A stretch of 44,625 nt of DNA, taken from the UHGV virus genome UHGV-0129366, one strand, 5' to 3'. Positions within the stretch are counted from its first letter, which is position 1. Every line of letters begins with the position of its first letter. The translations under genes were made by a program, and so were the position numbers. Under the pieces are notes generated by a model, which made no database searches, was not told the DNA's origin, and saw only the letters and a list, made by a program, of their open reading frames with translations. Positions 19,993 through 39,071 of this stretch are shown here, one piece after another. The DNA is from a virus.

Positions 19993-20132
19993 ACAAAGCA
20001 TTCGAACGATATATGCGCCAGCGTTATGGCAATCGCTATGACCTGACGCGAGATGTTGAAGGTTTCTACTGTAGTGAAATTGTGAAACGAATGTTTGAAG
20101 TTTGGTGTCATTGCAAAGGATGGGAGGTCTGA
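19989..20132 (+). CDS. Small hypothetical protein (47 aa)
   Basis: ATGA-coupled to the rusA stop; its stop overlaps the Q-like start (TGATG); contains CxxE...CHC residues. Confidence 0.3.
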   Translation: MNKAFERYMRQRYGNRYDLTRDVEGFYCSEIVKRMFEVWCHCKGWEV

Positions 20133-20746
20133 TGCGGCTAACTCCAGTATTCAGCATGGTTAACTTCATTAATGACGCGCACTTTCGCCGCGTATGGAGA
20201 CACCCGAAGAAAACCATCAACTCTAGCCAGAAAGCATGGGTTCATTACATGTTACAGGTATGGGGCAAGGTTAATACCGGAGATTGCTCTCCAGGTGGTG
20301 CAATTAACGTTATCGGTCGTCTGATGATTCGCAGTCAGTGGAGCGATGACAAGGCTAAGCAGATAGAGTCTGTCGTCATGCGCCTGTACGAAGAAGATGG
20401 GCTGCGCGGAGATGAGCTATACAAGAAAGCTCGCGAACTGGTCATTCCTCAATCATCGTTTAGCCACATCATCACTCTCGCCAAAGAATCAGATGATGCG
20501 GCTTTCGTTGAACGTGTGATGGTTAAAACGTTTCACCGTGAAAGCCCTGTCCGCGATGTAGCTATTAAGCGATATTGCAATCGCAATTGCACGCAAGATA
20601 TAGCCAGGATTATTTCTTATATAACAGGTGCTGATATTCAGTATTGTCGTAAGCGAGTGGTGTGGTGTGAGAAAGTGCTGGAGTCAGAAATGTTTTATGC
20701 AATGAAACGAGAATTGGAGAAAGAATTTCCATTAATAGCGGCCTGA
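20132..20746 (+). CDS. Putative late-gene antiterminator Q (family uncertain)
   Basis: 204 aa after rusA and before the late terminator and lysis genes; C-terminal Cys pairs (CNRNC, CRKRVVWC); no similarity to lambda Q noticed, so the call is positional. Confidence 0.5.
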   Translation: MRLTPVFSMVNFINDAHFRRVWRHPKKTINSSQKAWVHYMLQVWGKVNTGDCSPGGAINVIGRLMIRSQWSDDKAKQIESVVMRLYEEDGLRGDELYKKARELVIPQSSFSHIITLAKESDDAAFVERVMVKTFHRESPVRDVAIKRYCNRNCTQDIARIISYITGADIQYCRKRVVWCEKVLESEMFYAMKRELEKEFPLIAA

Positions 20747-20904
20747 ACTGAAATAATTTTGTAAATGCGTTGCTTCCGAGAAATGAAAGTGGTATTTTTT
20801 GTATATGCTCGGAGCAAAAGCGAACTGAGCAGTGAAATTGAAATCCTGATTTCCCCGGTCGTCGATAATATTTAGGGTCGACATACTGGCTAGATTAGGT
20901 AAGA

Positions 20905-20932
20905 GCCTCGGCAGAAACGTCGGGGCTTTTTT
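20905..20932 (+). terminator. tR-prime-like terminator of the short late leader transcript
   Basis: Hairpin gcctcggc/agaaac/gtcggggc (two G-U pairs) followed by TTTTTT, about 160 nt after the Q-like stop. Confidence 0.45.
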
Positions 20933-21262
20933 GTTTGCATAACAGGTAAGAGCATTGAACCCGCAGACCTCGCGGAATTGGTGAAAGGTGCCGCGCAGTG
21001 CTCTTATCGTTGTGGTGAATGCGCAGGCTGATGCGCGAAAGACATTGCAGCTATTGCGGAAAAGAGCTGTTCGGCGGGGCAATTAAACGCCCGTGAGAGT
21101 CTGAAATAACCGCAAGCCGGAGATCAGCACCGGTCGCCACAATCCAAACTGAGCCGTAGCCACTGGCTGTCCTGAATTCATCAGTGATAGTTACGCTGCG
21201 GCCTTCTTTTTTCCCTTCCCAATATAAGAACTACGCAATCCGTTACTGGCGGAGGCGTTGCT

Positions 21263-21478
21263 ATGAAATCAATGGACAAAATCTCAACTGGCATTGCCTA
21301 CGGCACCTCCGCAGGCAGTGCTGGCTACTGGTTTTTACAGTGGCTTGATCAGGTCAGTCCGTCACAGTGGGCTGCGATTGGTGTACTGGGGAGTCTGGTT
21401 CTGGGCTTCCTGACTTATCTGACAAATCTGTACTTCAAAATCAGAGAAGACAAGCGTAAGGCTGCACGGGGAGAGTAA
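21263..21478 (+). CDS. S: Phage-21-type pinholin/antiholin S (dual start)
   Basis: 71 aa [53 protein letters not shown]... matches S21/EssD; the MKSM dual-start motif is present. Confidence 0.9.
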
Positions 21479-21482
21479 TTCA

Positions 21483-21833
21483 ATGACTCAAAACTATGAA
21501 CTGATTGTGAAAGGGATCCGCAATTTTGAGAATAAAGTTACGGTAACTTTAGCGTTACGGGACAAAAAACGCTTTGACGGTGAAATTTTTGACCTGGACA
21601 TCTCGCTGGACCGTGTTGAAGGTGCCGCGCTGGAGTTTTATGAGGCAGCAGCCAGAAGGAGCATCAGACAGGTCTTCCTGGATGGCGCTGCCGGGTTATG
21701 TGAAGGGGATGAGCAGTCGCCGGAAAAGCGCCCCATAATTTTAGAGGCGCAGAATGTGTGGATAACCTACAAAGGAAAGCTACCAGGAAGAATTACTGGT
21801 TCTCTGAAGACTCCTCCGGAATCACAACCTTAA
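21483..21833 (+). CDS. Hypothetical protein inserted between holin and endolysin (116 aa)
   Basis: ORF with GGGGAGAG SD; no family recognised. Confidence 0.5.
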   Translation: MTQNYELIVKGIRNFENKVTVTLALRDKKRFDGEIFDLDISLDRVEGAALEFYEAAARRSIRQVFLDGAAGLCEGDEQSPEKRPIILEAQNVWITYKGKLPGRITGSLKTPPESQP

Positions 21834-21896
21834 GTCACTGACCGGAACAGATAAACCTGTCCGTGGGCAGAAACCGATAAATCCTGATAAATATCC

Positions 21897-22430
21897 ATGA
21901 ACGCAAAAATCAGATACGGCCTGTCGGCTGCCGTTCTGGCGCTGATTGCTGCAGGCTCGTCTGCTCCTCAAATACTTGACCAGTTTCTGGATGAAAAAGA
22001 GGGTAACCACACTACGGCATACCGCGATGGTTCCGGTATATGGACCATCTGTCGTGGTGCCACAATGGTGGATGGTAAGCCCGTCATACCGGGAATGAAG
22101 CTGTCGAAGGAAAAATGCGACCAGGTTAACGCTATTGAACGTGATAAGGCGCTGGCATGGGTGGAGCGCAATATTAAAGTACCACTGACCGAACCACAGA
22201 AAGCGGGTATAGCGTCATTTTGTCCCTATAACATTGGCCCCGGTAAGTGTTTCCCGTCGACGTTTTATAAGCGGCTGAATGCCGGTGATCGTAAGAGTGC
22301 ATGTGAGGCGATTCGCTGGTGGATAAAAGATGGTGGGCGCGATTGCCGCATACGTTCAAATAACTGCTATGGACAGGTTATTCGTCGTGACCAGGAAAGC
22401 GCATTAGCCTGTTGGGGGATAGATCAGTGA
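21897..22430 (+). CDS. R: SAR endolysin (T4-lysozyme fold)
   Basis: 177 aa; N-terminal SAR segment [18 protein letters not shown]; catalytic E-x8-D-x5-T ([16 protein letters not shown]). Confidence 0.9.
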
Positions 22431-22894
22431 GCAGAGTCGCCGCGATTATTTATGCTCTGGTTATCTGCATCATCGTCTGCCTGTCGTGGGCGGTCAATCA
22501 TTACCGTGATAACGCCATCGCCTACAAAGAACAGCGTGATAAAAAAGTCAGTGAGCTGAAGCAGGCGACCGCCACCATTACTGACATGCAGCAACGCCAG
22601 CGTGCTGCTGATGTACTCGATGCTAAATACACGAAGGAGTTGGCTGATGCGAAAGCTGAAAATGATGCTCTTCGGCGCAAGCTTGATAATGGTGGTCGGG
22701 TGCTCGTCAAAGGAAAATGCTCTGTGCCATCCTCAGCCGAAACCTCCAGCGCCTCCGGCATGGGCAATGATGCCACCGTCGAACTCTCTCCAGTTGCTGG
22801 ACGAAACGTTCTCGGTATCCGGGACGGAATCATCAGAGACCAGACAGCACTGAGAACGCTTCAGGAATATATCAGGACGCAATGCCTTCGATGA
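22412..22894 (+). CDS. Rz: Rz i-spanin
   Basis: N-terminal TM segment [17 protein letters not shown] then coiled-coil; overlaps endolysin end; the start may be the GTG at 22427. Confidence 0.8.
22647..22853 (+). CDS. Rz1: Rz1 o-spanin lipoprotein embedded in Rz
   Basis: +1 frame inside Rz; [22 protein letters not shown] lipobox signal then Pro-rich PKPPAPPAW. Confidence 0.75.
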
Positions 22895-23115
22895 TAGAGA
22901 TAATTTTACTCATCATCCTTCACATCTGGCTCTGTAGACAGGGTGGTGATCACTTCTGGAGTGAATCCAGATTAAACATCTCATTGCTGATGCTTGATAT
23001 TGAGCATCTGGCGCGCGGTAAGGGGCTGCGTTGAGATAAGAGTCAGTCATTACAAATACCAGGATTTAGCCTCGCATTCGCGGGGCTTTTTATTCCCAAC
23101 TCTATAGGTAATTTT

Positions 23116-23595
23116 ATGACCCAGCATATTGGCGTAAAGCTGATTAACGCCTTTCCGATGACGAGACAGGCATATAACGATTTTCGTGGCTGGCAGCTTC
23201 CTGCCGGAGAAAACGGCGAGGACGAAGGCTATCTGGTTGAATATCTGGATGGCGGAAAACCTAACACCGATCGCTTTGATGGCTACGTTAGCTGGAGTCC
23301 AAAAGAAGTATTCGAAAAGGCTTATCGTCCGGTATCAGGGCTAAGTTTCGGCCTTGCCATGGAAGCGTTAAAACAGGGCAAAAGTTTGCAGCGGGCAGGA
23401 TGGAATGGGAAAGACCAGTTTGTTTATCTCGTGAAAGGGGAAAAATTAGCGTCTGCGTTGGGTTATGGCTTTGGCGAATATGTTGGCGAGCCAACTTTCA
23501 ATGACACGCTTGTATTGAAAAACTCACAGAACCGCCTTGCTACATGGGTTCCATCCATTGGCGACCTGATGGCTGAAGACTGGCAAATCATTTAA
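23116..23595 (+). CDS. DUF2829-domain protein (Tad2-like candidate anti-defence protein) with an unknown N-terminal domain
   Basis: C-terminal half FGLAMEALKQGKSLQRAGWNGKDQFVYLV...DLMAEDWQII matches the remembered DUF2829 pattern; flanked by terminator-like hairpins. Confidence 0.5.
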   Translation: MTQHIGVKLINAFPMTRQAYNDFRGWQLPAGENGEDEGYLVEYLDGGKPNTDRFDGYVSWSPKEVFEKAYRPVSGLSFGLAMEALKQGKSLQRAGWNGKDQFVYLVKGEKLASALGYGFGEYVGEPTFNDTLVLKNSQNRLATWVPSIGDLMAEDWQII

Positions 23596-23832
23596 CCATG
23601 TAGGCATTACAAAGCCTATCTACGGGTGGGCTTGATAATGAAACCGGAGTTAATTTCTGGTCACTAATTAACGGCAGTACAGCGAAACAACCCAAGCCAG
23701 TAAGTGGGGAAATAACACTGGCAGCCACTGAAAGATGAACCTCCAGCCTTATGGCAAAAAAGATTCTTTGTGGTGGCGGACTGATGGAAAGACATCCGCT
23801 GAATCGATGATGAACAAGTGGAAGAGGTTGTG

Positions 23833-24003
23833 ATGGTTTCCGTGAACAAAGATCCGAAGGAAGGCGTTGAATACATCACTGGTGCTGATGGTGTGAAAAG
23901 GCCAATGGCTTATTACAAAGCGGCCGAAGAGAGGGCAAGAATGGAAAATCCCCCTAAATGCGGATCATTTTTCGACATGCTGGACCTTCAATGGAAGTTG
24001 TGA
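23833..24003 (+). CDS. Small hypothetical protein (56 aa)
   Basis: ATG with GAAGAGG SD; followed by a hairpin plus T-run near 24013-24040. Confidence 0.35.
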   Translation: MVSVNKDPKEGVEYITGADGVKRPMAYYKAAEERARMENPPKCGSFFDMLDLQWKL

Positions 24004-24387: not shown

Positions 24388-24828
24388 ATGGCGCGCCCAA
24401 CAAAGTATCAAGAGGCGTACGCCGAACAGGCACGCAAACTGTGCTTGCTGGGCTACACCGATGCAGAGCTTGCTGATTTCTTCGAAGTCAGTGAGTCAAC
24501 TATTAACAAGTGGAAGCTTGATTATCCTGAGTTTTCGGAGTCCATAAAAAAGGGTAAGGCCGTCGCTGATGCAGAAGTTAGTGATCGTCTTTATCAACGC
24601 GCTATGGGCTTCGTGGCTCCAGATATCGATATTCGTGTTATTGAAAACAGAATTGTCGAAACTCCGCTTGAGAAGTATTACCCGCCTGATACAACCGCTG
24701 CCATTTTCTGGCTTAAGAACCGACAGAAGGATAAATGGCGCGACAAGGTTGATCACGAGCTAACAGGCAAAGACGGCGGCGCAATTCAGATTGAAACATC
24801 ACCGATGAGCACTCTATTCGGAAAATGA
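24388..24828 (+). CDS. terS: Terminase small subunit (Sf6 gp1-like)
   Basis: 146 aa; N-terminal HTH region; C-terminus ...GKDGGAIQIETSPMSTLFGK as in Sf6-type TerS; overlaps terL start. Confidence 0.85.
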   Translation: MARPTKYQEAYAEQARKLCLLGYTDAELADFFEVSESTINKWKLDYPEFSESIKKGKAVADAEVSDRLYQRAMGFVAPDIDIRVIENRIVETPLEKYYPPDTTAAIFWLKNRQKDKWRDKVDHELTGKDGGAIQIETSPMSTLFGK

Positions 24829-26240
24829 CCTCGATTAATCCTATCTTTGAACCGTTCATTGAGGCGCATCGCTACAAAGTTGCCAAAGGCGGTCGAGGTA
24901 GCGGTAAATCATGGGCAATTGCGAGGCTGCTTGTTGAAGCGGCGCGTCGGCAGCCTGTGCGCATACTCTGCGCTCGTGAACTGCAAAACAGTATCAGCGA
25001 TTCGGTAATCCGGTTGCTTGAAGATACCATTGAGCGGGAAGGGTATTCGGCTGAGTTTGAAATTCAGCGTTCCATGATTCGTCATCTTGGAACGAATGCT
25101 GAATTCATGTTCTACGGCATCAAAAACAACCCGACGAAGATTAAATCGCTCGAAGGCATTGATATCTGCTGGGTGGAAGAAGCGGAAGCGGTAACGAAGG
25201 AATCATGGGATATCCTGATACCAACCATCCGTAAGCCATTTTCCGAAATATGGGTGAGCTTTAACCCAAAGAACATCCTCGACGATACCTATCAGCGATT
25301 CGTCGTAAATCCTCCCGATGATATTTGCCTGCTGACGGTGAACTACACCGACAACCCGCACTTTCCTGAAGTTCTCCGTCTGGAGATGGAAGAGTGCAAA
25401 CGCAGAAATCCGACACTGTATCGTCACATCTGGCTTGGTGAGCCAGTAAGCGCAAGTGATATGGCAATCATCAAACGTGAATGGCTTGAAGCCGCAACCG
25501 ATGCGCACAAGAAACTCGGATGGAAAGCGAAAGGCGCGGTTGTTTCTGCGCATGACCCATCAGATACAGGGCCGGATGCCAAAGGTTATGCATCGCGTCA
25601 CGGTTCGGTAGTTAAGCGTATTGCCGAAGGTCTGCTGATGGACATCAACGAGGGCGCTGACTGGGCTACTTCGCTGGCGATTGAAGACGGCGCTGACCAT
25701 TACCTGTGGGATGGTGATGGTGTTGGTGCCGGGCTACGCAGACAGACAACGGAAGCGTTCTCCGGCAAGAAAATCACCGCCACGATGTTCAAGGGCAGTG
25801 AATCGCCATTCGATGAAGATGCGCCGTATCAGGCCGGAGCATGGGCTGATGAAGTCGTACAGGGTGACAACGTTCGCACTATTGGCGATGTGTTCCGCAA
25901 TAAGCGAGCACAATTCTATTACGCGCTGGCTGACAGGCTGTATCTGACATATCGGGCGGTTGTTCACGGTGAGTATGCAGACCCAGACGACATGCTGAGT
26001 TTCGACAAAGAAGCGATAGGCGAGAAGATGCTGGAGAAGCTGTTTGCAGAACTGACGCAGATTCAGCGCAAATTCAATAACAACGGGAAGCTGGAGCTTA
26101 TGACTAAGGTCGAAATGAAGCAGAAGCTCGGTATTCCATCTCCTAACCTGGCTGATGCGTTGATGATGTGTATGCATTGTCCGGAGTCGGCTGCGCAACC
26201 CGACTATTCCAGTTACTCAATTCCTTGTGGTGTAGGTTGA
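24825..26240 (+). CDS. terL: Terminase large subunit
   Basis: 471 aa; Walker A KGGRGSGKS, Walker B DICWVEEAE, C-terminal nuclease domain. Confidence 0.92.
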   Translation: MTSINPIFEPFIEAHRYKVAKGGRGSGKSWAIARLLVEAARRQPVRILCARELQNSISDSVIRLLEDTIEREGYSAEFEIQRSMIRHLGTNAEFMFYGIKNNPTKIKSLEGIDICWVEEAEAVTKESWDILIPTIRKPFSEIWVSFNPKNILDDTYQRFVVNPPDDICLLTVNYTDNPHFPEVLRLEMEECKRRNPTLYRHIWLGEPVSASDMAIIKREWLEAATDAHKKLGWKAKGAVVSAHDPSDTGPDAKGYASRHGSVVKRIAEGLLMDINEGADWATSLAIEDGADHYLWDGDGVGAGLRRQTTEAFSGKKITATMFKGSESPFDEDAPYQAGAWADEVVQGDNVRTIGDVFRNKRAQFYYALADRLYLTYRAVVHGEYADPDDMLSFDKEAIGEKMLEKLFAELTQIQRKFNNNGKLELMTKVEMKQKLGIPSPNLADALMMCMHCPESAAQPDYSSYSIPCGVG

Positions 26241-26241
26241 T

Positions 26242-28440
26242 ATGGCAGAAAAAAAGATGACTGACTGGCATCGCAAGGTGCTGTGCAACTTTGATAATGC
26301 CTGGTCAGCAACGCAGGATATGCGTGAGCAGATTATTGAGGCTCAACGTTTCGTCCGGGTGTCCGGCGCACAGTGGGAAGGCAGCACAAACGCTGGTTAC
26401 TCATTTGATGAAGGCAGGTTTGAGCATTACCCGCGCTTTGAACTGAATAAGATTGCCCGTGAATGTGATCGCATCATTGGCGAGTATCGACAGAATCGCA
26501 TCAGCGTTAAATTCAGGCCGAAGGATGACAAGGCATCGGAAGCGTTAGCCGAAAAGATGAACGGCAAATTCCGCGCTGATTATCAGGAAACATCCGGTGG
26601 CGAAGCGTGTGATAACGCATTTGATGATGCTGTAACGGGCGGATTCGGTTGTTTCCGCATGTGTGCTGATTACGAAGATGAAATGGATCCGAGTAACGAG
26701 CAGCGACGCATCAGCCTTCTTCCTGTTTACGACCCGGCGACATGCGTCTTCTTCGATCAGGACAGCAAGCAATATGACCGCTCTGATGCTATGTGGGCTA
26801 TGGAAATGTTCTCCATGACGCCTAAAGCGTTCGAGGCTGAATACCCTGATTCCATCGCGGCAAGCCTTTCTCGTGATGACACTGGTACTCAGTATGACTG
26901 GTCAACGCCTGACGCCATCTATGTTGGACGCTACTACGAAGTCCGCATAGAGAAGGTGAAGCTCACAGCATGGCGTAACCCTGTCAGCGGAGAAACGGCA
27001 ATCTATGATGAAGAGCAAATCAAAGATATTGTCGACGAGCTGACCGATGGTGCATTCGAACTGATTGGCGAGCGAACGGTGAAGAAACGCCGAGTTTATT
27101 GCGGTCTTCTGTCTGGCGCTGAATGGCTGGAAGAACCGAAGCGTATTCCGGGCGAACATATTCCTCTCATCCCGGTATATGGGCGTCGTTCATTTGTTGA
27201 TAATCAGGAGCGAATCGAAGGCCACGCAGCAAAAGCGATGGATGCACAGCGTCTTGAGAACCTGATGGTTTCCATGATTGCAGATAACGCCACTCAGGCT
27301 GGCGGTGATGGCATTCCTATCGTGGATGTTGATTTCATTCCCGGCCCATTAATGAACCACTGGGCAGAGAGGAATAAGAAAAGACCTGCAGTTCTTCCTA
27401 TGACCAGCAAGAAGGACAAAAACGGAACGGTCATTTCAGAGGCTCAGGTTGCTGGCTGGACACCTCCGACACAAATGCCTCCAGCTCTTGCAGGGCTATT
27501 GCAGTACACCGGAACGGCTATTCAGCAAATTACAGGTGCGTCGCAGCTTGAGAACATGCCGAGCAACGTCGCTACCGATACCGTTGATAGCATCTTTAAC
27601 CGGATGGACACGCAGTCCTATATCTACATGGACAACATGGCTAAATCCATGCGCCGTGCTGGCGTCGTGTGGCTTTCTATGGCTCGTGAAGTCTATGGCA
27701 GCGATACGCCAATGCGCATCGTTAATGAGGATGACAGCGATGACGTGGCGCTGATGACTGGTGAAGTGGTTGACCGTCAGACAGGGCAGGTTATCGCGCT
27801 TAACGACCTTTCGCAGGGTAACTATGAAGTGACTGTCGATGTCGGTCAGTCGTTCGCTACTCGCCGTGATGCAACGGTTAAGTCGTTACTTTCCATGCTG
27901 GCACTTATCCCGCCAGGAACGCCGAAGCATGACCTTGTATCGTCGATGATTCTCGACAATATGGACGGCGAAGGGATGGACGACCTGAAAGAATACAACC
28001 GCAATCAGTTGCTTCTGTCTGGCGTTATCAAGCCGAGAACGCCTGAAGAACAGCAAATGGTTGAGCAGGCGAAACAACAACAGGCCAGTCAGCCAGATCC
28101 GGCTATGGTTGCAGCGCAAGGTCAGCTTCTGGCTGGTCAGGCTGAATTGCAGAAAGCGCAGAACGAACAGGCAGCCATTCAGGTTAAAGCATTCCAGGCA
28201 CAGACTGATGCTCAGGTTGCAGCGGCAAATGTTGTGAAAATCCTCGCATCTGCCGATAGCCAGCAGAAATCTGATATCCGCGAGGCTCTGAAACTGCTCG
28301 GACAGTTCCAGCAACAGCAAGGAGACAATGCCCGTGCTGATGCAGAGCTTGTCCTGAAAAGTCAGGCACAGGGCCATGCGCAGCGCATGGACATCAGCAG
28401 CATCCTGCAAAAATCAACTCAGCAACAACCACAGCAGTAA
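26242..28440 (+). CDS. Portal protein (P22 gp1-like)
   Basis: 732 aa; C-terminal Gln-rich barrel PETPEEQQMVEQAKQQQ...ADAELVLKSQAQGHAQRMDI parallels P22 gp1. Confidence 0.92.
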   Translation: MAEKKMTDWHRKVLCNFDNAWSATQDMREQIIEAQRFVRVSGAQWEGSTNAGYSFDEGRFEHYPRFELNKIARECDRIIGEYRQNRISVKFRPKDDKASEALAEKMNGKFRADYQETSGGEACDNAFDDAVTGGFGCFRMCADYEDEMDPSNEQRRISLLPVYDPATCVFFDQDSKQYDRSDAMWAMEMFSMTPKAFEAEYPDSIAASLSRDDTGTQYDWSTPDAIYVGRYYEVRIEKVKLTAWRNPVSGETAIYDEEQIKDIVDELTDGAFELIGERTVKKRRVYCGLLSGAEWLEEPKRIPGEHIPLIPVYGRRSFVDNQERIEGHAAKAMDAQRLENLMVSMIADNATQAGGDGIPIVDVDFIPGPLMNHWAERNKKRPAVLPMTSKKDKNGTVISEAQVAGWTPPTQMPPALAGLLQYTGTAIQQITGASQLENMPSNVATDTVDSIFNRMDTQSYIYMDNMAKSMRRAGVVWLSMAREVYGSDTPMRIVNEDDSDDVALMTGEVVDRQTGQVIALNDLSQGNYEVTVDVGQSFATRRDATVKSLLSMLALIPPGTPKHDLVSSMILDNMDGEGMDDLKEYNRNQLLLSGVIKPRTPEEQQMVEQAKQQQASQPDPAMVAAQGQLLAGQAELQKAQNEQAAIQVKAFQAQTDAQVAAANVVKILASADSQQKSDIREALKLLGQFQQQQGDNARADAELVLKSQAQGHAQRMDISSILQKSTQQQPQQ

Positions 28441-28530
28441 TTAACCCATAACGTGCAATGGCTGTCTTTATGAGGCCTGGCACCCTATTGCCTTCCGATG
28501 GGCTGAACATCGAGTAAACAGGGGTAACAA

Positions 28531-29427
28531 ATGGACCAGATGGCAGAAAACACACCAGAAGTTGAAATCGAAACCGACGCGTCAGAGCAGATTCCTGATG
28601 ATGTCGAACTGGCTGAAGAAGTCGAAACAGCAGATGGCAGTGAGTCCTCAGGAAATGATGCAGAGGAAGCTACTGACACTGATGACGACGAATCAGAACA
28701 GGAATTCTACTTTGGTGACGAAAAGCTGGATTCGCCAACCAGCGAAGATGGCGCAGAGCATGGACTGGTAAAACACCTGCGCAAGACGATTAAAGAGAAA
28801 GACCGTGAGCTGAAAGAGCTGATGCGTCAGTCTCAGAAACCCGTCGAGCAGCAGCCGGTAATCACTCAACCACCGCGAATGCCAAAACTGGATGATGAGG
28901 ACATCGGTTTCGATGAAGAAATCTATCAGCAACGCATGGCTAAGTGGGCAGAGGATAACGGCAAATACCAGGAGCAAGTACGAGAGCGGAAACGAGAGGA
29001 AGAGGCGCGTACCGCAACGCTTCAGCAGAAAGCAGCCAATTACATGCATAGAGTAAAAGCACTGAAAGTGGCTGGTTACCAGGATGCAGAGCAGGCTGTA
29101 CGCGAAGATGTTCCTGTTCACATTCAGGACATGATCCTTCTTGAGTCAGAGAAGCCGGAAATCGTTGTTCTGGCACTCGGTCGCAACGCTGAACTGCGCA
29201 AGCAACTGGCAGAAGCTACCAACCCCGTAGCAATTGGTCGTCTGCTGGAACGTATCGAATCGAAGGCCAGAATCATGCCAAAAGCAAAAACCACGGCAGC
29301 CACAACCCCGACAGTTAAGGGGAGCAACGGCGCAGTAATCAATAACCTCGACAAACTTCTCGAAAAAGCGCGCGACACCGGTGATTACACCGAATACCGG
29401 GCGGCGAAGAACAAAGCTAAAAAATAA
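28531..29427 (+). CDS. Scaffolding protein (P22 gp8-like)
   Basis: 298 aa, highly acidic N-terminus, helical/charged, between portal and coat. Confidence 0.8.
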   Translation: MDQMAENTPEVEIETDASEQIPDDVELAEEVETADGSESSGNDAEEATDTDDDESEQEFYFGDEKLDSPTSEDGAEHGLVKHLRKTIKEKDRELKELMRQSQKPVEQQPVITQPPRMPKLDDEDIGFDEEIYQQRMAKWAEDNGKYQEQVRERKREEEARTATLQQKAANYMHRVKALKVAGYQDAEQAVREDVPVHIQDMILLESEKPEIVVLALGRNAELRKQLAEATNPVAIGRLLERIESKARIMPKAKTTAATTPTVKGSNGAVINNLDKLLEKARDTGDYTEYRAAKNKAKK

Positions 29428-29447
29428 TCCATCGGAGCTAAATACCT

Positions 29448-30707
29448 ATGTCTAACCAGTTAACAAAAGACCTCGAAATCCTCTTTGAGAGCGTCATTGA
29501 TAGTTTTGAGGCGTCCAATGTCGTTTCCCGCGAGTGCAGCAAGTTCCGACCGGGCGACATTGAAATGCAGCGCGCTGGCGACGTTGTTTATCGCCCTCAG
29601 GGCTACCACCTGAAAACCGTGAGCGGACTTGATCTGACTTCGGCCACTGCAAACTCACTCGTTCAGCGTCAGGTGCCTGCTCGCTTCCGCGAGCCAGAGA
29701 ACGTCATCTACGAACTGGACGCAAAAGAAATGCGCGATCCGTGGCACAAAGAGCAGGCTGGCAAGGCGGCGGGTCGCCAGTTGGCGGCGTGGGTTGATAA
29801 CATGATCGTCGATGAGGTGGTCGCTCGCTCCACCAACGTGGTCACCATTAAATCGGCGTCCACCGGTAGCACTCTCGGCGAAGAACTCTGGAACGCATCG
29901 GCTGACGTTGATGCAATGATGCTGTCCATTGGTGTGCCTCAGGGTGGTCAGCGCAAGGCGTTCTACAACCCGTTCAACTACAAAGACCTGGCTAAGGAGC
30001 TTGGCTCTCGCGCATATGCGGTCGGTGCAACTCTGACAGCCTATGAGAAAGCTCAGATTCCACCTGTGGCATCCTTCGACAGTTTCCGCGTTGATTATGC
30101 TGGCGCAATGAAGGCTGGTTCAGCTACCGCTGTAACTCTCGGCGGCGCAGTAAAACACAAAGTTACCGCGATGGATTCCAACGGCGCGCCTACCGATAAC
30201 CGCCAGGGTGACATCACCGTATCCACTGCTGGCGTACTGGCTGTCGGCGATGCATTCACTATCGCAGGCGTTAACAGTGTCCACATGATCAAGAAGGTGG
30301 ATACAGGTAAGCCGCAGGTATTCCGCGTCCTGGCAGTAAATGGCACTACCGTTACCATCAGCCCGAAAATTCTGCCACCAGACAACGCGGATAAGGCGTC
30401 TATTCCTTACCAGAACGTTACCGCCAATCCGGTGGCAAACGCGGCGATCACCATCCTCAACAAGAAGGCTGCGGCTTCCAACATCTTCTTCGCTGAGGGT
30501 TCTGTTGAGCTGATGTATGGCAAGTTGGCATTCCCTACCGGCCAGGGTCCGCAGGTTATGACCGCAAGGACCGAGCAGGGTGCGACCATCATCATGGCTT
30601 ACCAGTTCGACGCTAAATCTGGCAAAACGTGGACTCGCTTCACCACGCTGGCTGGCGCAAGCGTACTGGTCCCGGAATTCACCGGCCTGGTACTGGCTAA
30701 CCAGTAA
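29448..30707 (+). CDS. Major coat protein (P22 gp5-like)
   Basis: 419 aa after the scaffold gene; followed by a strong terminator. Confidence 0.85.
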   Translation: MSNQLTKDLEILFESVIDSFEASNVVSRECSKFRPGDIEMQRAGDVVYRPQGYHLKTVSGLDLTSATANSLVQRQVPARFREPENVIYELDAKEMRDPWHKEQAGKAAGRQLAAWVDNMIVDEVVARSTNVVTIKSASTGSTLGEELWNASADVDAMMLSIGVPQGGQRKAFYNPFNYKDLAKELGSRAYAVGATLTAYEKAQIPPVASFDSFRVDYAGAMKAGSATAVTLGGAVKHKVTAMDSNGAPTDNRQGDITVSTAGVLAVGDAFTIAGVNSVHMIKKVDTGKPQVFRVLAVNGTTVTISPKILPPDNADKASIPYQNVTANPVANAAITILNKKAAASNIFFAEGSVELMYGKLAFPTGQGPQVMTARTEQGATIIMAYQFDAKSGKTWTRFTTLAGASVLVPEFTGLVLANQ

Positions 30708-30712
30708 TCCAA

Positions 30713-30737
30713 GGGGCTTCGGCCCCTCTTTTTTTTT
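30713..30737 (+). terminator. Rho-independent terminator after the coat gene
   Basis: ggggc-ttcg-gcccc followed by an 11-nt T-run. Confidence 0.7.
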
Positions 30738-30747
30738 GGAGATCGAA

Positions 30748-30936
30748 ATGTCTCAAATCATGCTTTATAAGCCGGGATCGATGATCACCTGCGGCCCCCA
30801 CTCGCTGGATTACATCATCGTTGATGACGAAGAAGTTAAATCTCACCTGAAAAAAGGCTGGGTAAAAACTCCTGAAGAAACCGCAACGAAGCAAAAAGTG
30901 GCTAAGGCGGAAGAAGATGGCGAAAACGAAGGGTGA
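30748..30936 (+). CDS. Small hypothetical protein (62 aa) between coat and gp4-like genes
   Basis: ATG with GGAG SD right after the terminator; 3' end overlaps the gp4-like start in another frame. Confidence 0.4.
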   Translation: MSQIMLYKPGSMITCGPHSLDYIIVDDEEVKSHLKKGWVKTPEETATKQKVAKAEEDGENEG

Positions 30937-31378
30937 TCTCGTTCTAAAGGCTTTACGAAAAGCCGGGCTGTATTCCAATGCCACGTTGACAGATGCTGAC
31001 CCTCAGGCAATTGAAGATGCCATTAATGACCTCGAAGACATGATGGCAGCATGGCAGGCTAAAGGTATCGAGCTTGGATATCAGTTTGCTGATACAGAAA
31101 ACGGCATCATGCCGTTACCTGACGATGATTCAGGTATCCCTGCATGGGCAAATGATGGCGTCGCTTTGAAACTCGCTGTGCAAGTGTGCATGGATAACGT
31201 CATTCAGCCGTCAGACGCTCTCCTTACCGCTGCTGACAGTGCATATCAAACAATCTGTATCGCTTTAACCAAAATACCACCACTTGAGCGACGAAATGAC
31301 ATGCCTCGCGGGGCGGGGTTAAAAAGCGCGTTTACGTGGAATCGGTTTTACATCGAGAAAGATGATCCGAGTACGTGA
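30917..31378 (+). CDS. Head completion/tail adaptor protein (P22 gp4-like)
   Basis: 153 aa; KTKGDLVLKALRKAGLYSNATLTDADPQAIEDAINDLEDMMAAW parallels P22 gp4. Confidence 0.8.
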   Translation: MAKTKGDLVLKALRKAGLYSNATLTDADPQAIEDAINDLEDMMAAWQAKGIELGYQFADTENGIMPLPDDDSGIPAWANDGVALKLAVQVCMDNVIQPSDALLTAADSAYQTICIALTKIPPLERRNDMPRGAGLKSAFTWNRFYIEKDDPST

Positions 31379-31387
31379 GGTGAATAA

Positions 31388-32806
31388 ATGCCGATTCAGC
31401 AACTTCCGCTTATGAAAGGTGTCGGCAAAGACTTTCGAAACGCCGACTATATCGACTATCTGCCAGTGAATATGCTGGCTACGCCCAAAGAAATACTCAA
31501 CAGCAGCGGATATCTTCGCTCATTCCCGGGCATTGCCAAACGTTCTGATGTGAACGGCGTATCGCGGGGCGTCGAGTACAACATGGCGCAGAATGCTGTT
31601 TATCGCGTATGTGGTGGTAAGCTGTACAAAGGAGAAAGTGAAGTCGGTGACGTCGCCGGAAGTGGTCGCGTATCAATGGCGCATGGTCGAACATCACAGG
31701 CGGTAGGCGTTAATGGTCAACTGGTCGAATACCGCTATGATGGCACGGTTAAAACCGTCTCAAACTGGCCTACAGACAGCGGATTCACGCAGTATGAGTT
31801 AGGCTCAGTCCGCGACATTACGCGCTTGCGTGGGCGTTATGCGTGGTCAAAAGACGGCACTGATTCATGGTTTATCACTGACCCTGAAGACGAATCGCAT
31901 CCTGACCGTTACAGCGCACAATATCGCGCAGAATCTCAGCCGGACGGCATCATCGGCATCGGAACATGGCGAGACTTCATCGTCTGCTTTGGCTCATCGA
32001 CGATTGAATATTTCTCCCTGACGGGCGCAACCACTGTTGGTGCCGCTTTGTATGTCGCCCAGCCATCGTTGATGGTGCAAAAAGGAATCGCCGGAACCTA
32101 CTGCAAAACGCCGTTTGCTGATTCGTATGCGTTCATCAGCAATCCGGCAACAGGTGCGCCGTCTGTGTACATCATCGGCTCCGGTCAGGTGTCACCAATC
32201 GCCAGCGCGAGCATTGAGAAAATCCTCCGCTCCTACACTGCTGATGAACTGGCTGATGGCGTGATGGAGTCTCTGCGCTTTGATGCTCATGAGTTGCTGA
32301 TTATCCACCTTCCGCGCCATGTTCTCGTGTACGACGCATCTTCAAGCGCCAATGGTCCGCAATGGTGTGTGCTGAAAACAGGCTTGTATGACGATGTGTA
32401 CCGCGCTATCGACTTCATTTACGAAGGCAATCAGATAACGTGCGGAGATAAGCTGGAATCGGTTATCGGCAAATTGCAGTTCGATATCAGCAGCCAGTAT
32501 GGGCTACAGCAAGAACACCTGTTGTTTACACCACTCTTCAAAGCTGAGAACGCCAGATGTTTTGATCTGGAAGTTGAATCATCGACTGGTGTCGCTCAGT
32601 ACGCTGACCGCCTGTTCCTCTCTGCAACCACTGACGGCATCAATTACGGACGTGAGCAGATGATTGAGCAGAATGAACCGTTCGTTTACGACAAACGCGT
32701 TTTGTGGAAGCGAGTAGGGCGCATCAGGAAAAATGTCGGCTTCAAATTGCGCGTTATCACGAAGTCACCTGTCACTCTGTCTGGCGCTCAGATAAGGATC
32801 GAGTAA
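31388..32806 (+). CDS. Tail hub protein (P22 gp10-like)
   Basis: 472 aa, the P22 gp10 length, in the conserved position. Confidence 0.8.
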
Positions 32807-33507
32807 TGGCTGATTCGAATCTCAACACCCCTGTTATTGTGCAGGCGACGCGGCTCGATACATCAATCCTTCCACGCAATATATTCAGCCAGTCTTACCT
32901 GCTGTATGTCATTAATCAGGGGGCTGATGTCGGCGCAATTGCCGGGAAGGCAAATCAGGCTGGTCAGGGCGCTTACGATGCTCAGGTGAAAAACGATGAA
33001 CAGGACGTCGAACTGGCAGATCACGATTCAAGAATCACCGCAAACACAAAAGCGATAAATCTCCTTGAGGTCAGGTTAACAACCGCCGAAGGGAAGATAG
33101 TCGTACTGCGTAGCGATGTTGATTACTTGCTGGATGAGGTTATCGATATTCAGGCGCATCTGGTCACTGTTGACAAAAGACTGGATGACGTAGAAAACGA
33201 TGTCTCTGGCATTAAGAGTGATTACGTATCGAAAACCGTAACAGAATCGCAGTCTCTTGCGTCACCGCTGGATGTAAAAACATCATATTCAGTTGATGGA
33301 ATTCAGGTTGTTGGAGCAAGAAATACCGGATGGACTGCAGCCACAGGTACGCCACTTCTTGGCTCATTCAACGCTAACCAGTCATACACTGTCGGCACTA
33401 CGTACACACAATCCGAAGTCGCAGCTCTCGCTACAGGTTTGCAGCAGGCGCGGCAGCGTATTCTGGCGCTTGAAACAGCACTTAGATTACATGGGCTGAT
33501 TGACTGA
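32806..33507 (+). CDS. Tail needle protein (P22 gp26-like)
   Basis: [25 protein letters not shown]...[21 protein letters not shown]... and C-terminus [15 protein letters not shown] match P22 gp26; start at 32806 (TAATG overlap). Confidence 0.88.
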
Positions 33508-33962
33508 TGATTACATTCAAACCAACGCGAAACATCGACCTGATAGAAGCAGTAGGAAATCACCCTGACATTATTGCTGGAAGCAACAACGGTGATGGAT
33601 ACGACTACAAGCCTGAATGCCGTTACTTTGAGGTTAACGTGCACGGTCAGTTTGGCGGCATTGTTTACTACCAGGAGATTCAGCCGCTTACATTCGATTG
33701 CCACGCCATGTACCTGCCAGAGGTTCGCGGATTCAGCAAGGAAATCGGGCTGGCGTTCTGGCGATACATTCTGACTAACACCACCGTTCAGTGCGTCACA
33801 TCGTTCGCTGCACGCAAATTCCGCCACGGGCAGATGTACTGCGCAATTATTGGCCTTAAGCGTGTAGGAACCATCAAGAAATACTTCAAAGGCGTGGATG
33901 ACGTGACTTTTTACAGCGCCACACGCGAAGAACTAATCGACTTCCTGAATCACGGGAGATAG
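33507..33962 (+). CDS. gp14-position head assembly/ejection-associated protein
   Basis: 151 aa; call is positional (between needle and gp7-like genes). Confidence 0.5.
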   Translation: MITFKPTRNIDLIEAVGNHPDIIAGSNNGDGYDYKPECRYFEVNVHGQFGGIVYYQEIQPLTFDCHAMYLPEVRGFSKEIGLAFWRYILTNTTVQCVTSFAARKFRHGQMYCAIIGLKRVGTIKKYFKGVDDVTFYSATREELIDFLNHGR

Positions 33963-33964
33963 CC

Positions 33965-34657
33965 ATGTTATATGCATTTAAGCTGGGCAGAAAACTGCGC
34001 GGCGAGGAACCTTATTGCCCTGAAAAAGGCGGGAAAGGTGGCAGTTCTGATAAAAGTGCAAAGTATGCCGCAGAAGCTCAGAAGTATGCCGCAGACCTGC
34101 AAAATAAGCAGTTCAACACCATCATGAACAACCTGAAGCCGTTTACTCCTCTGGCTGGGAAGTATGTCGGCAGCCTTGAGAACTTATCGTCTCTGGAAGG
34201 GCAAGGTCAGGCACTTAACCAGTATTACAACTCTCAGCAGTACAAAGATCTTGCTGGTCAGGCTCGCTATCAGAGTCTGGCTGCAGCGGAAGCAACAGGT
34301 GGATTGGGTTCCACCGCAACCAGTAATCAGTTAGCAACAATCGCACCAACGCTTGGTCAGCAATGGCTATCTGGACAAATGAACAATTACAACAACCTGG
34401 CAAATATCGGTCTTGGCGCTCTTCAGGGACAGGCAAACGCCGGGCAAACATATGCCAACAACATGAGTCAGATTTCACAGCAAAGCGCGGCGCTGGCGGC
34501 GGCAAACGCCAACCGACCGTCAGCATTGCGGCAGGGTGTTAGTGGTGCTGCATCCGGTGCGCTTTTGGGTGGTGGTATAGCCAGTGCTCTCGAGCTATCA
34601 ACTCCGTGGGGTGCTGGTATCGGTGCTGGTCTTGGTCTGCTTGGTTCGCTGTTTTAA
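33965..34657 (+). CDS. Ejection protein (P22 gp7-like)
   Basis: 230 aa, Gly/Ala/Gln-rich with hydrophobic C-terminus; position and size as P22 gp7. Confidence 0.7.
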   Translation: MLYAFKLGRKLRGEEPYCPEKGGKGGSSDKSAKYAAEAQKYAADLQNKQFNTIMNNLKPFTPLAGKYVGSLENLSSLEGQGQALNQYYNSQQYKDLAGQARYQSLAAAEATGGLGSTATSNQLATIAPTLGQQWLSGQMNNYNNLANIGLGALQGQANAGQTYANNMSQISQQSAALAAANANRPSALRQGVSGAASGALLGGGIASALELSTPWGAGIGAGLGLLGSLF

Positions 34658-34667
34658 GGGGTAATCA

Positions 34668-36083
34668 ATGGCTGCTTGGCAACAGGGTATTAATTCTGGT
34701 GGTTTTCTGGCTGGCATCGGTACGCAAAATGAGAATGCGCCAAAGGCAAGCGACATTAACGCAACGCTTGGTCTGATCCGCGAAAACAATGAACTGGCTC
34801 GCTCAGGTACAAATAACGTTGGTCTGACCGCGTTACGTGGTCTGGCTGGAGTTGCTGATATTTACAATCAGGAACAGCAACAGAAAGCGATTAGTGCGTT
34901 CAATAAGGTTCATGCTGATGCATGGGCTTCTGGTGATCCATCGGGACTATTTAAGTTTGCCCAGGAAAATCCAGCGTTTGTTGCACAGGCACAACAGGCG
35001 TTTTCAGGTCTTAATGATCAGCAACGCAACGATATGGGCGATTTAGCCATGAGAGCTAACGTCGCTCTTTCTCAGGGACCGGAAGCCTACAGTAAATTCA
35101 TTACTGACAACAAGGACAGGTTAAATCGCGTGGGGGCGAATGCTGACTGGATGATTCAGACAGGTATCCAGAATCCAGAGCAGCTATCACACATGCTGAC
35201 TACTATGTCTCTCGGTGCGCTTGGACCAGAAAAGGCGTTTGCTGTTCAGGACAAGATGGCTGGTCGTGAAATTGACCGAGGCAGACTGGCAGAGACAATC
35301 CGCAGCAATCAGGCTGGAGAAGCACTTCAGGCGAGAGGGCAAAACCTTTCCTATCAGTCAGCAATGACTGGGCACAATATCGCAGCACAACGCTTGGCTC
35401 TGGATCAGCAAGAGTTTGGGTTTAAGATGCAGCAAGCGCAGGAAAAGGCTCAGCAGTTGATTAGCGAAGCACCTAAGCTGTCAGTAAACATGGAAAAAGG
35501 CATCGAGACGGCTGTAAACAATGCCACAGCATCATCAAACTCAGCCAATTCCATGAGTGCGCTTGCTCAACAGTTCAGAGCAGAAAAACCAACGACAGGT
35601 TTGTTCGGTAACGCACAGAACATGTTCGCAAAACTTACCGGAAGCGATACGACATTGCGTGATTTGCGCATTCGCCAAAATGCCCTTGTTAACAGTCAGG
35701 TTCTTAAATTCCTACCTCCCGGCCCAGCAACGGATAAAGACGTTGAGATCGTTCGACAGGGTGCGCCAACTGACATGGATAACCCTGAGACGGTCGCAAG
35801 ATGGCTTGATGCAATGGCAAACCTTGAGCGACGAAACGCGCAGTTTAATGAGTTTAAAGCCGAGTGGATGAGCGCGAATGGCAACCCTGGACAATCGCGT
35901 AATGGCGGTCAGATATTGGGGTTGGATGTTAAAAAAGGTGAATCATTGGGGAGTGCCGTTAAGCGGTATATGTCATTGAATACTGACGCAGCGCCAGCAC
36001 AAGATTCGACACCTTCAGGAGAACCACGGAATCAGGTTGGATCATATACCTCAAAATCAGGCATTCAATTTACGGTGGAATGA
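34668..36083 (+). CDS. Ejection protein (P22 gp20-like)
   Basis: 471 aa; position and size as P22 gp20. Confidence 0.75.
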
Positions 36084-37921
36084 TGAAAGTTACTGCAAAC
36101 GGTAAGACATTTACCTTTCCTGATGGTACGAGCACGGAAGATATTGGCACCGCCATTGATGAGTATTTTGCTGGTCAGGCTGTTCAGCAACAAACAGTTA
36201 ATCAGGCCAATAATGCACCAACACGGGAAGAACCATCATTGATGCAACAAGCTGGCGATTGGCTCACTGGTGGTCAAAGTGCAGGGCAAATTGCGGAACA
36301 GGCTGGTCGTGGTCTGGTAAACATACCATTTGACGTATTGCAGGGCGGCGCAAGTCTGATTAATGCAATCAGCCAGGGGCTTGGTGGCCCCAAGGTTTTG
36401 GACGATGTCTATCGTCCAGTCGATCGACCAACAGACCCTTATGCGCAAGCTGGAGAAACAATTGGCGGGTATTTAGTTCCAGGAGTTGGAACGGCAGGAA
36501 GCATGGCTATTGGATCACTGGCAGAGGCCGCAAATCAGAAAGGCGATTTCGCACAAAATGCAGCTAAAAATGCCGGAGTTAACCTTGCCGCTCAGGGGGT
36601 TCTTTCCGCAGCAGCAAAGGGAATAGGGCGTGGAATAACGGCTATAAAAGGTGATATTGCGCCAGAAGTGGCGAAGAAAATTGCCACATCAGAATCGATG
36701 GGCGTGACACCAATGACATCTGATGTTATCCCGCCGAAAAATGCTTTCACTCGCGGCCTAACTCAGGATGCCGAGGGGGCTTTGCTCGGGACAGGCTCAA
36801 AGCGAGCGGAGCAATATGCAACGCGTAGTAAGCTGGTAAGTAATTATTTTGACCGTTTTGGTGAGTACAACCCTGATGATGTGGTGAAATCTCTTACCAC
36901 CACGTTAAGGGGGCGGAAGGATGCCGCTGGCGCTGTTATCAATGACGTCACCAATAAAATGGGTAATGCCGCAGTTGATACCACAAATACCATGAATGCT
37001 CTGAATACAGCGATCGCAAGACAGGAACGACTTGGGACGTCTGCCAATCAAAGCCTGCTTACATCCTTGCGTAACCTACGTGAAGAATTAGCAAACCCTG
37101 CAACTGATTTGGATGTTACGTTTGATCTCTTGCGTCAGCACAGAACAGCATTTAGATCTAATGTTCAGGGAGATGCTATGGTCTTCCCCAACCAGGCAAA
37201 AGCAGCTACCAATATGGTAGAGAATGCAATGTCAAAAGACCTTCGTAACGCAGTTGCTAAAAACCTCGGTGCATCAGACGCAGCAAAATACCTTAAAGCA
37301 AATTCCGATTATGCAAACGTTTATAATAAGGTGCTTAATAAAAACATTGCTAACAAACTCAACAAGGCAAGCAGTGAAGCCAGTCCTGAACTTATAAATA
37401 CCGTTGTATTAAGCAGAAAACCATCTGACGTGAAACGAATCTGGAGCGCATTGGATAATAAAGGGAAAGATGCTATGCGTGCAGCTTATGTCAGCAAAAT
37501 AGCGGAAAAGGCCGGTGACTCTCCAGCCAAGTTCATCACTGAAGTTAATAAGCTGAAATCTCAGTCAGGCGGTGAAATTTACAACACTATTTTTTCTGGA
37601 AAGCACATGAAAGAGCTTGATTCTCTTCATGAAGTTCTACAGCAAACAGCAAGGTCAGACACCGCAAATGTAGTAACTCAGACGGGGCAATCGCAAGCCA
37701 ACAGGATAAGGACGATTGGCGCAACTGCGACTCTTGGCGTATCAATGGGGCTTGAGGCTGGTTTCGGTGCAATGATGCGCTTGTATGAGTCCAAAGCAGC
37801 AAGGAATGCTCTCTTACGTTTGGCAAACACCAAAGCAGGAACACCAGCCTATGAAAGAGCGTTGAGTAACGCTGCAAATGCCATCAGACCGCTGCTTGCC
37901 ACTGAGGCAACACAGCAGTAA
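36080..37921 (+). CDS. Ejection protein (P22 gp16-like)
   Basis: 613 aa; position and size as P22 gp16; overlaps the preceding gene. Confidence 0.75.
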
Positions 37922-37945
37922 CGTATGGGGAATTGGATTCAATCG

Positions 37946-38335
37946 TTAACATTTTCTTTTTACTTTTCCAACAAAAGCTTTGGTTGAATCCATATTCCCA
38001 TAACCAGAAATGGTTTTCGACATTAAAACTGTTCCATTAGGATGTATTACCCATGAGTCGATAACTCGTTGAGTTTCGCCATTCGCGCCGATTCCAATGA
38101 TGGAGTTTTTAGACAATGCTTTGTAAGCCATGCCGCCCGCATCTGTCCCAGAATATGTGATGCTGGCATCTTCACTGCTTGTCTTAATGATGAATGTTCC
38201 ACTAAAACCATCTTCTTCCGGATGGAAATTATTTCGTTCTGAATAGCTTATTCCGCGCATATCTCCAACGACCCAGCACTCTGCTGTAGCCCCAAAAGAT
38301 ATGAATAAGAACATAGCAGCAAGAAATTGCTTCAC
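37946..38335 (-). CDS. Secreted (signal-peptide) hypothetical protein
   Basis: GTG start 5 nt after AAGGAGG; predicted signal peptide MKQFLAAMFLFISFGATA then mature protein; in the sieA-equivalent variable slot. Confidence 0.5.
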   Translation of the reverse strand: MKQFLAAMFLFISFGATAECWVVGDMRGISYSERNNFHPEEDGFSGTFIIKTSSEDASITYSGTDAGGMAYKALSKNSIIGIGANGETQRVIDSWVIHPNGTVLMSKTISGYGNMDSTKAFVGKVKRKC

Positions 38336-38365
38336 ACCAACCTCCTTAGTTTTGAGCAGGATACC

Positions 38366-38731
38366 ATGAAAAAAGTTAACATTGGAAACGTACCAAAGAT
38401 GCTCGTTCCGCTCTTTGAGAGCGGTACAATTGTGTTTTGTAGAGACTTTCCAGAATGGCAACGCCTGCATCAAAAACTTGGCGTTGACGTGCATGACTCG
38501 GACGCCAACGGAGCGTCTCATACAATGAGCAGCGAGAATGGTGTTTTGCATGTGATAGGCGTGTTCAATGGCAAACTATCTACTATTGCCCATGAGTGCG
38601 CTCACATGGCATTCGATATCTGCTCAAGGGTCGGTGTTGATGTTGAACCAGGAAGAGCCAATGAGACTTACTGCTACTTAATGAGCAGGCTTGTTGAGTT
38701 CTGCGAGCGACATATCAAAAAGCCGGAGTGA
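38366..38731 (+). CDS. Small HExxH-motif protein (putative zinc metallopeptidase-like)
   Basis: 121 aa from ATG 38366; HECAH motif; divergent from the secreted-protein gene. Confidence 0.4.
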   Translation: MKKVNIGNVPKMLVPLFESGTIVFCRDFPEWQRLHQKLGVDVHDSDANGASHTMSSENGVLHVIGVFNGKLSTIAHECAHMAFDICSRVGVDVEPGRANETYCYLMSRLVEFCERHIKKPE

Positions 38732-38744
38732 CCCGGCTTGAGTA

Positions 38745-38924
38745 TTACTTTTTGCTGTCTGGAGTTCGCTTATCCAATACCCAGCCATGACCTGGCTTTG
38801 TTGTTGGTGGAAGCCTTTCGTTGTCCTTGACGGTTGCAAAATTGTCTTTCTTACCGCCGCGTGGGCCAACTTCTTGGTATATTCCGCCGTTTTTTCCTGT
38901 GTTTTCACCTGGTTTTTTCGCCAT
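38745..38924 (-). CDS. Small Gly/Lys-rich hypothetical protein (59 aa)
   Basis: MAKKPGENTGKNGGIYQEVGPRGG... with GAGG SD; start moved to internal ATG 38924. Confidence 0.4.
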   Translation of the reverse strand: MAKKPGENTGKNGGIYQEVGPRGGKKDNFATVKDNERLPPTTKPGHGWVLDKRTPDSKK

Positions 38925-39016
38925 GATATACCTCAACATATACCCGTTATTGGGCGATTAAATATTGATCTCATTTTATAAGTAGTCAATATGGCCCAGG
39001 TAAATGCAAAAATTAA

Positions 39017-39039
39017 CCCACCGTCAGGTGGGTTTTTTT
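39017..39039 (+). terminator. Rho-independent terminator (possibly bidirectional)
   Basis: cccacc-gtca-ggtggg followed by TTTTTTT. Confidence 0.55.
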
Positions 39040-39071
39040 ATCTTCTCTACTTTAAAGATTAAGGAAATACC

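Follow-up and report, generated by a model that had tools for sequence, protein, structure and literature searches.

A YdfR/DUF1327-family gene between the holin and lysozyme genes of a lambdoid prophage: an optional, probably late-expressed gene with a possible RNase E connection

The window analysed here is a stretch of 44,625 nucleotides, UHGV virus genome UHGV-0129366. It contains a lysis cassette in which a holin gene of the pinholin type (S) and a lysozyme gene (R) are separated by a third gene, here named ydfR, and are followed by the spanin genes Rz and Rz1 (Table 1). The start of ydfR lies 4 nt past the stop codon of S. RefSeq homologues differ from the frames listed at two of the neighbouring genes: the start of the Q-like gene is placed further in, corresponding to position 20132 of the window, and Rz begins at a GTG at position 22427. 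The hydrophobic segment at the N terminus of R is a putative SAR or signal-like sequence, and the frame nested within Rz is assigned to Rz1 by analogy with the Rz1 of phage 933W.

Table 1. Features of the late region and lysis cassette of the window, with the basis for each assignment
Feature	Position	Strand	Basis
Q-like late antiterminator gene, heading the late region	20102–20746	+	phrog_753 'anti-termination protein Q-like', E 2.3e-67
Terminator-like hairpin and T-run upstream of S	20901–20930	+	Pattern scan: 12-bp stem, 6 G-C pairs, T-rich tail
Holin S, S21-type class II (pinholin type), 71 aa, MKSM dual-start motif	21263–21478	+	PF04971 Phage_holin_2_1 ('Bacteriophage P21 holin S'), E 1.4e-35; phrog_9876/phrog_20
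Shine-Dalgarno element GGGGAGAG for ydfR, lying inside the last codons of S, 7 nt upstream of the ydfR ATG	21468–21475	+	Sequence; alignment with 933W, K-12 Qin, and mEp460
ydfR, whole open reading frame	21483–21833	+	ATG start, TAA stop, 116 aa
ydfR core domain, aa 1–74	21483–21704	+	PF07041; 80% identity to K-12; AF2; column counts; dN/dS 0.15–0.44 (codons 1–72, pairwise, against diverged homologues)
ydfR C-terminal module, aa 75–116 and stop	21705–21833	+	Alignments; AF2 pLDDT about 40; dN/dS 0–0.43 (codons 75–112, pairwise, against diverged homologues)
ydfR–R spacer, 63 nt, A/U-rich	21834–21896	+	Sequence
Lysozyme R, 177 aa, RrrQ/933W-R type	21897–22430	+	PF00959, E 2.2e-24; 92% identical to 933W R
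Rz i-spanin	22412–22894	+	PF03245, E 9e-29; phrog_13
Putative Rz1 o-spanin lipoprotein, inside Rz in the +1 frame, lipobox ...MVVGC	22647–22853	+	ORF translation; AAGGAG Shine-Dalgarno element 8 nt upstream
Terminator-like hairpin past the lysis cassette (after Rz)	23068–23087	+	Pattern scan

The hairpin upstream of S would, from its position, correspond to the tR′ terminator of lambdoid late operons. A pattern scan of the plus strand from S to R found no promoter-like or terminator-like sites, and an Rfam scan of positions 20000–24000 returned only a sub-threshold chance match. Given the Q-like gene and the tR′-like terminator upstream, the lack of any promoter or terminator between S and R, and a strong Shine-Dalgarno element, ydfR would thus be co-expressed late, as the second gene of a Q-dependent transcript shared with S, R, and Rz/Rz1 and with no expression signals of its own beyond the Shine-Dalgarno element. 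A preliminary description of the locus had proposed, as one option, a cargo gene expressed with the late genes; these signals fit that proposal, as does the optional nature of ydfR, which is absent from 933W.

The physical account given in that description was also right: an intact 116-aa open reading frame runs from ATG to TAA between S and R, its good ribosome-binding site is borne out by GGGGAGAG 7 nt upstream of the ATG, and its product has no transmembrane segment, the highest 19-residue Kyte-Doolittle mean being 0.68. Hydropathy and sequence checks revealed no signal-like N terminus, and no amphipathic membrane segment was seen in the YdfR-family protein of the window. The product is a soluble, mildly acidic protein (GRAVY −0.43, pI 5.6) comprising a conserved core of 72–74 residues and a variable C-terminal module. 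Pairwise dN/dS values are low in both parts (Table 1), and the frame is a genuine protein-coding sequence under purifying selection.

It is practically certain that this protein belongs to the YdfR/DUF1327 family. A profile search, a check that the preliminary description had recommended, matched Pfam entry PF07041 (DUF1327) with 139.6 bits (cut-off 25; E 3.8e-41), over positions 1–92 of the 93 in the model; the PHROG matches were phrog_406 and phrog_2091, and residues 1–74 share 80% identity with YdfR of Escherichia coli K-12. No NCBIfam model matches the 116-aa protein. In RefSeq, copies of the gene that are 99.9%–100% identical carry the name 'YdfR family protein'. The statements that the gene was unannotated and of no recognisable family therefore both fail, and the family itself is already known, having a Pfam entry, a K-12 gene name, and routine annotation by pipelines.

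The K-12 namesake (b1555, P76160) lies in the cryptic prophage Qin and has the same synteny, essQ (holin)–ydfR–rrrQ (lysozyme)–rzpQ/rzoQ. It differs from the gene described here in two respects. The K-12 protein has 103 aa as against 116 aa, and the C-terminal modules of the two are unrelated after residue 74; moreover, the stop codon of ydfR overlaps the start of rrrQ in K-12, whereas a 63-nt spacer separates the two genes in the window.

This pattern of a shared core with exchangeable ends extends to the whole family. The core is found alone in phage Evi (72 aa) and in distant relatives of 72–76 aa, which are 24%–39% identical and align over its whole length; elsewhere it carries differing C-terminal extensions, giving proteins of 103, 104, 114, 116, 169, 176, 183, 211, 263, and 268 aa. 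The 42-residue C-terminal module that follows the core in the window protein is common to many E. coli variants, is missing from the 72–76-aa relatives, and is replaced in K-12. YdfR-family proteins, at 72 to 268 aa, are strongly modular and mosaic at the C terminus. Two C-terminal sequence blocks, '...TALRSEKDDIES..' and '..KRRDEQFAAFYDYCIEVTRRNF..', recur in various combinations (window 21705–21830 and comparison loci L004, L005, L009, L010, and L011).

For the core, an AF2 model of residues 1–75, built on an alignment that included distant relatives, has a mean pLDDT of 87.3 and predicts antiparallel strands at residues 5–14, 18–27, and 34–43 followed by a long helix at residues 50–70. When AlphaFold was supplied with a shallow alignment of E. 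coli sequences only, the N-terminal domain was usable, and the pLDDT was about 40 past residue 69. Tyrosine 53 and glutamate 54 are invariant in 29 sequences with identities down to 24%, and R44, G47, and A57 are the majority residues of their alignment columns; the family motif (D/E)(R/K)xEGxxLE(F/Y)YE is present in the 116-aa protein as DRVEGAALEFYE. Residues 58–62 read RRSIR here as against KKQAK in relatives, and the family column counts for these positions, [I/K/R][K/R][K/Q]A[K/R], were set, by sequence alone, beside the basic KKxAK-type motif with which the C-terminal helix of dsRBDs begins.

Membership of the dsRBD fold was rejected. The predicted strand–strand–strand–helix core lacks the first (N-terminal) helix of the helix–strand–strand–strand–helix arrangement; on sequence, there is no Pfam dsRBD match, and alignment of the family profile with the dsRBD of E. 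coli RNase III by hhalign gave a probability of 0.2%. A Foldseek search of the BFVD viral models returned nothing at E ≤ 1e-3, a PDB sequence search with the single sequence gave no match, and a PDB profile search gave only a chance match to eL18 (E 0.35) and no dsRBD. No fold similarity to phiKZ Dip (PDB 5ft0) was found. The conserved core is thus without a confident structural relative.

The family is not confined to the interval between S and R. At L015 4001–4219, L017 511–741, and L018 449–667, a relative of 72–76 aa separates two lambda-like minor tail genes, M (PF05939) and L (PF05100); another follows tail gene I (L014 1636–1866). In a Pantoea prophage (L020 4001–4219), a relative sits between Q and an unrelated holin/endolysin pair, this being a single locus from a related-locus search with a narrow alignment. 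The family occupies at least three slots in late operons: Q/holin, holin/endolysin, and tail. Because all of its positions are insertion slots of late operons, ydfR behaves like a mobile, 'moron-like' accessory gene of the late region. Morons of the classical kind come with a promoter and a terminator of their own and are expressed in lysogens. The lambdoid morons (bor and lom of lambda, and stx between Q and S) are like ydfR in being optional, in lying between essential late genes, in their mosaic distribution, and in their use of alternative slots; the difference from classical morons is that neither a promoter nor a terminator was detected for ydfR by pattern scan.

Many YdfR relatives are also followed by a small convergent open reading frame of 70–104 aa. 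One group of these partners, of about 100 aa, belongs to phrog_25324 (L012 1744–2040, L013 693–992, L018 696–1001, and L020 4240–4542, all on the minus strand) and turns up in different genera and in the S–R slot (phage Evi), the tail slot (L018), and the Q–holin slot (L020), as well as in L013; three of these partners, compared by BLASTP, share 61%–75% identity. Beside further DUF1327 genes, the convergent frame is of an unrelated kind (phrog_2572, 1853, 2411, and 10490). A single conserved partner family was rejected, as BLASTP joins only some of the frames, which fall into at least five PHROGs or into none. The copy in the window has no convergent partner.

These observations bear on the reading that survives best among the alternatives, namely that ydfR is cargo of the moron type directed at some other target, such as host defence, superinfection exclusion, or host takeover, and that it is perhaps the orphan half of a two-gene module. 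The three different insertion slots would be expected of such cargo, as would the highly mosaic C-terminal modules and the convergent partners, with phrog_25324 recurring across slots; an anti-defence-type, Tad2-like gene also lies just past the lysis cassette. Several results, however, count against it. PADLOC gave no match for the 116-aa protein at E ≤ 1, the lack of a detectable promoter of its own makes expression in the lysogen unlikely, and a gene expressed late is poorly placed to counter defences acting at entry. That the partner frames belong to at least five families unlinked by BLASTP also makes a fixed two-component system doubtful. Overall, such a role is conceivable but rather improbable.

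Comparison of S–R junctions, which had been recommended as a check on the preliminary description, addresses the relation of ydfR to lysis more directly. It gave a divided result: S and R are adjacent in 933W and in Lambda_ev203, and ydfR stands between them in K-12 Qin and in mEp460. In 933W, S (76% identical) and R (92% identical) are 4 nt apart without ydfR, and in Lambda_ev203, S (96% identical) is directly followed by a lysozyme of the phage 21 type (R21 type), again without ydfR. The gene is therefore optional within the S–R cassette and, with 933W and Lambda_ev203 serving as natural 'deletions', is not needed for carriage of the cassette by viable phages.

The junctions also show where the gene entered. 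In an alignment of 933W, K-12 Qin, and mEp460, ydfR starts at the exact position at which R starts in 933W, and the 4-nt gap and the Shine-Dalgarno element are identical. R of 933W uses the GGAGAG element (L007 2217–2223) that is used here by ydfR. No Shine-Dalgarno element precedes the start of R in the window (..CCTGATAAATATCCATG, window 21834–21899), and in the cassettes that bear ydfR the leader of R is conserved, A/U-rich, and devoid of one; RNA structure in the spacer between ydfR and R is no more stable than that of shuffled sequence (z −0.13). By these alignments, ydfR has captured the ribosome-binding site used by R in cassettes that lack ydfR, and its insertion may have changed the translation of R.

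Cassettes with ydfR are common. A search of 5426 complete E. coli genomes located DNA homologous to the gene in 4349 of them (about 80%), with up to 10 copies per genome, and with the S–ydfR–R segment as query, at least 2850 of the 5426 have a place that covers at least 80% of it. The gene lies directly after a class II holin also in mEp460, PhiR63_1, PhiR5_1, Chlobot, Stx2-86, PhiR12_2, Stx1_499, and Evi. S–ydfR–R is hence itself a standard arrangement. The earlier view that holin and endolysin genes are normally adjacent holds only in part: it fits 933W, in which S and R are 4 nt apart, and does not hold for these E. coli genomes or for K-12 Qin. Among phage records, 101 have a YdfR homologue as against 438 with an S21-type holin; the former include many Stx1a, Stx2c, and other Stx phages, mEp460, and H-19B-like phages. 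When 1.84 billion cluster representatives were searched exhaustively with HMMER, no more than 87 relatives came to light, and the family is consequently a small one.

The second alternative, already raised in the preliminary description, is that ydfR regulates lysis, either as a cytoplasmic factor that adjusts the activity of the pinholin or of the lysozyme (by binding the charged C-terminal tail of S, for instance) or because its presence lowers translation of R, which has lost its Shine-Dalgarno element to ydfR. In every E. coli phage locus examined, ydfR begins 3–4 nt past the stop of S and precedes the same 177-aa lysozyme, and this nearly constant position leaves room for a role in lysis. 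The Keio ydfR mutant is, furthermore, among the hits of a CPRG screen for envelope permeability (PMC3879167, supplementary files 2 and 5), a paper that names ydfR only in its supplementary hit lists; this phenotype could, however, equally stem from polarity of the resistance cassette on the downstream lysozyme gene rrrQ.

The remaining evidence speaks against regulation of lysis. The protein of the window has neither a transmembrane nor an amphipathic membrane segment; the same S and R types work together without ydfR in the 933W cassette; relatives sit in tail clusters and beside, or upstream of, unrelated holins and endolysins; and overexpression of K-12 ydfR causes no strong growth defect (PMC13232886). 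Membrane-bound lysis regulators (antiholins and releasins) were rejected as candidates in particular, as YdfR has no transmembrane segment or anchor and is not obligately linked to the holin, given 933W, Lambda_ev203, and the relatives in tail clusters. The suggestion of a lysis regulator is accordingly not supported and is considered unlikely; that ydfR is an accessory gene and not a lysis effector is, conversely, quite probable.

The weakest alternative, a non-functional remnant or chance open reading frame, draws on the K-12 copy, which belongs to a cryptic prophage and is hardly expressed under standard conditions (PMC13232886), and on the many database entries of the family that are frameshifted or fused, but it is extremely improbable in view of dN/dS values well under 1 in both halves, residues that are invariant across relatives at 24%–39% identity, a confidently predicted core fold, the strong Shine-Dalgarno element, and intact copies in phages that can be induced and form plaques, mEp460 and Stx phages among them.

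The preferred reading, in which the YdfR core acts on RNase E and/or RNA, takes its lead from the sole experimental functional data found for YdfR, a study of the K-12 protein (PMC13232886; RNA Biology 2026). When a library was screened by two-hybrid assay against RNase G, a fragment comprising codons 1–72 of K-12 ydfR came up three times, and this fragment gave stronger two-hybrid signals with RNase E constructs (PMC13232886). Residues 1–72 are thus reported to bind the catalytic N-terminal half of RNase E; full-length K-12 YdfR interacted with Rne(1–597), and Strep-tagged YdfR co-eluted with FLAG-tagged Rne(1–598) (PMC13232886). Nucleic acid resistant to DNase, reported as RNA, co-purified with the K-12 protein, which the authors note a contaminant could account for; few transcripts changed upon overexpression of K-12 ydfR, no strong growth defect followed, and the cryptic prophage copy is itself almost silent under standard conditions (PMC13232886). 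The contact between K-12 YdfR and Rne could be bridged by RNA.

Since the interacting part of the K-12 protein is the conserved core, 80% identical here, the RNase E/RNA reading can be carried over to the 116-aa protein. This link comes from one paper on overproduced, tagged K-12 YdfR, and the C-terminal 42 residues of the window protein differ; by analogy with K-12, the mechanism is thus a possible one for the 116-aa protein, although it must be regarded as doubtful. According to the preferred reading, ydfR would be an optional accessory gene that lambdoid prophages of E. coli and related bacteria carry in their late operon. Its product would most likely act in the cytoplasm late in infection, with the core binding RNA and/or RNase E of the host, the latter at its catalytic N-terminal half, and thereby modulating RNA decay during expression of the long late transcript. 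Taken as a whole, this statement—a YdfR/DUF1327 accessory late gene with late RNase E/RNA binding that modulates RNA decay—has a little under an even chance of being correct.

A broader version can be formulated for the family. YdfR proteins might be late phage modulators of host RNase E and/or RNA-binding proteins, with a dsRBD-like strand–strand–strand–helix core, that move between three slots (Q/holin, holin/endolysin, and tail M/L), often together with a convergent partner, and that shield or reshape late mRNA in many E. coli prophages, including Stx phages; in this extended form, the proposal is speculative and on balance rather unlikely. Phage proteins acting on RNase E are known from other systems, among them T4 Srd, T7 gp0.7, and phiKZ Dip. 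These are likewise small phage-encoded modulators of host RNA decay, and T4 Srd reportedly contacts RNase E within its N-terminal half, as K-12 YdfR is reported to do; none of the three is known to be related to YdfR in sequence.

The comparative data narrow the options to an optional gene that is tied to no single lysis system and whose conserved part is the core of 72 aa. Genes for YdfR are present in about four-fifths of complete E. coli genomes and in many Stx-converting phages; hence, if binding to RNase E or RNA is physiologically relevant, manipulation of host RNA decay by temperate phages during the late expression phase would be widespread, and late expression and release of Stx phages might be affected.

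Elsewhere in the window, a 159-aa open reading frame at 23116–23595 (plus strand), just past Rz/Rz1 and the hairpin that follows them, encodes a domain like Thoeris anti-defence 2 (PF11195 Tad2-like, E 6.4e-22; phrog_872), making this a candidate anti-defence cargo gene adjoining the lysis cassette. From 24825 to 44625, also on the plus strand, lies a P22-like morphogenesis module (P22_portal PF16510; P22 coat PF11651). In the tailspike, a P22 head-binding domain is joined to a complete endosialidase (a K1 capsule depolymerase) that has its chaperone domain; a K1-specific prophage resembling CUS-3 is suggested. The closest match to the lysis region is in W224N, a cerebrospinal-fluid isolate, but there it is accompanied by lambda-like tail genes, so that the prophage is a mosaic. 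At the left end of the window (50–3950, minus strand) lies torS, a host gene for a sensor kinase (PF21689 and related domains), and since a lambda-type integrase gene adjoins torS, the attachment site of the prophage would lie beside it.
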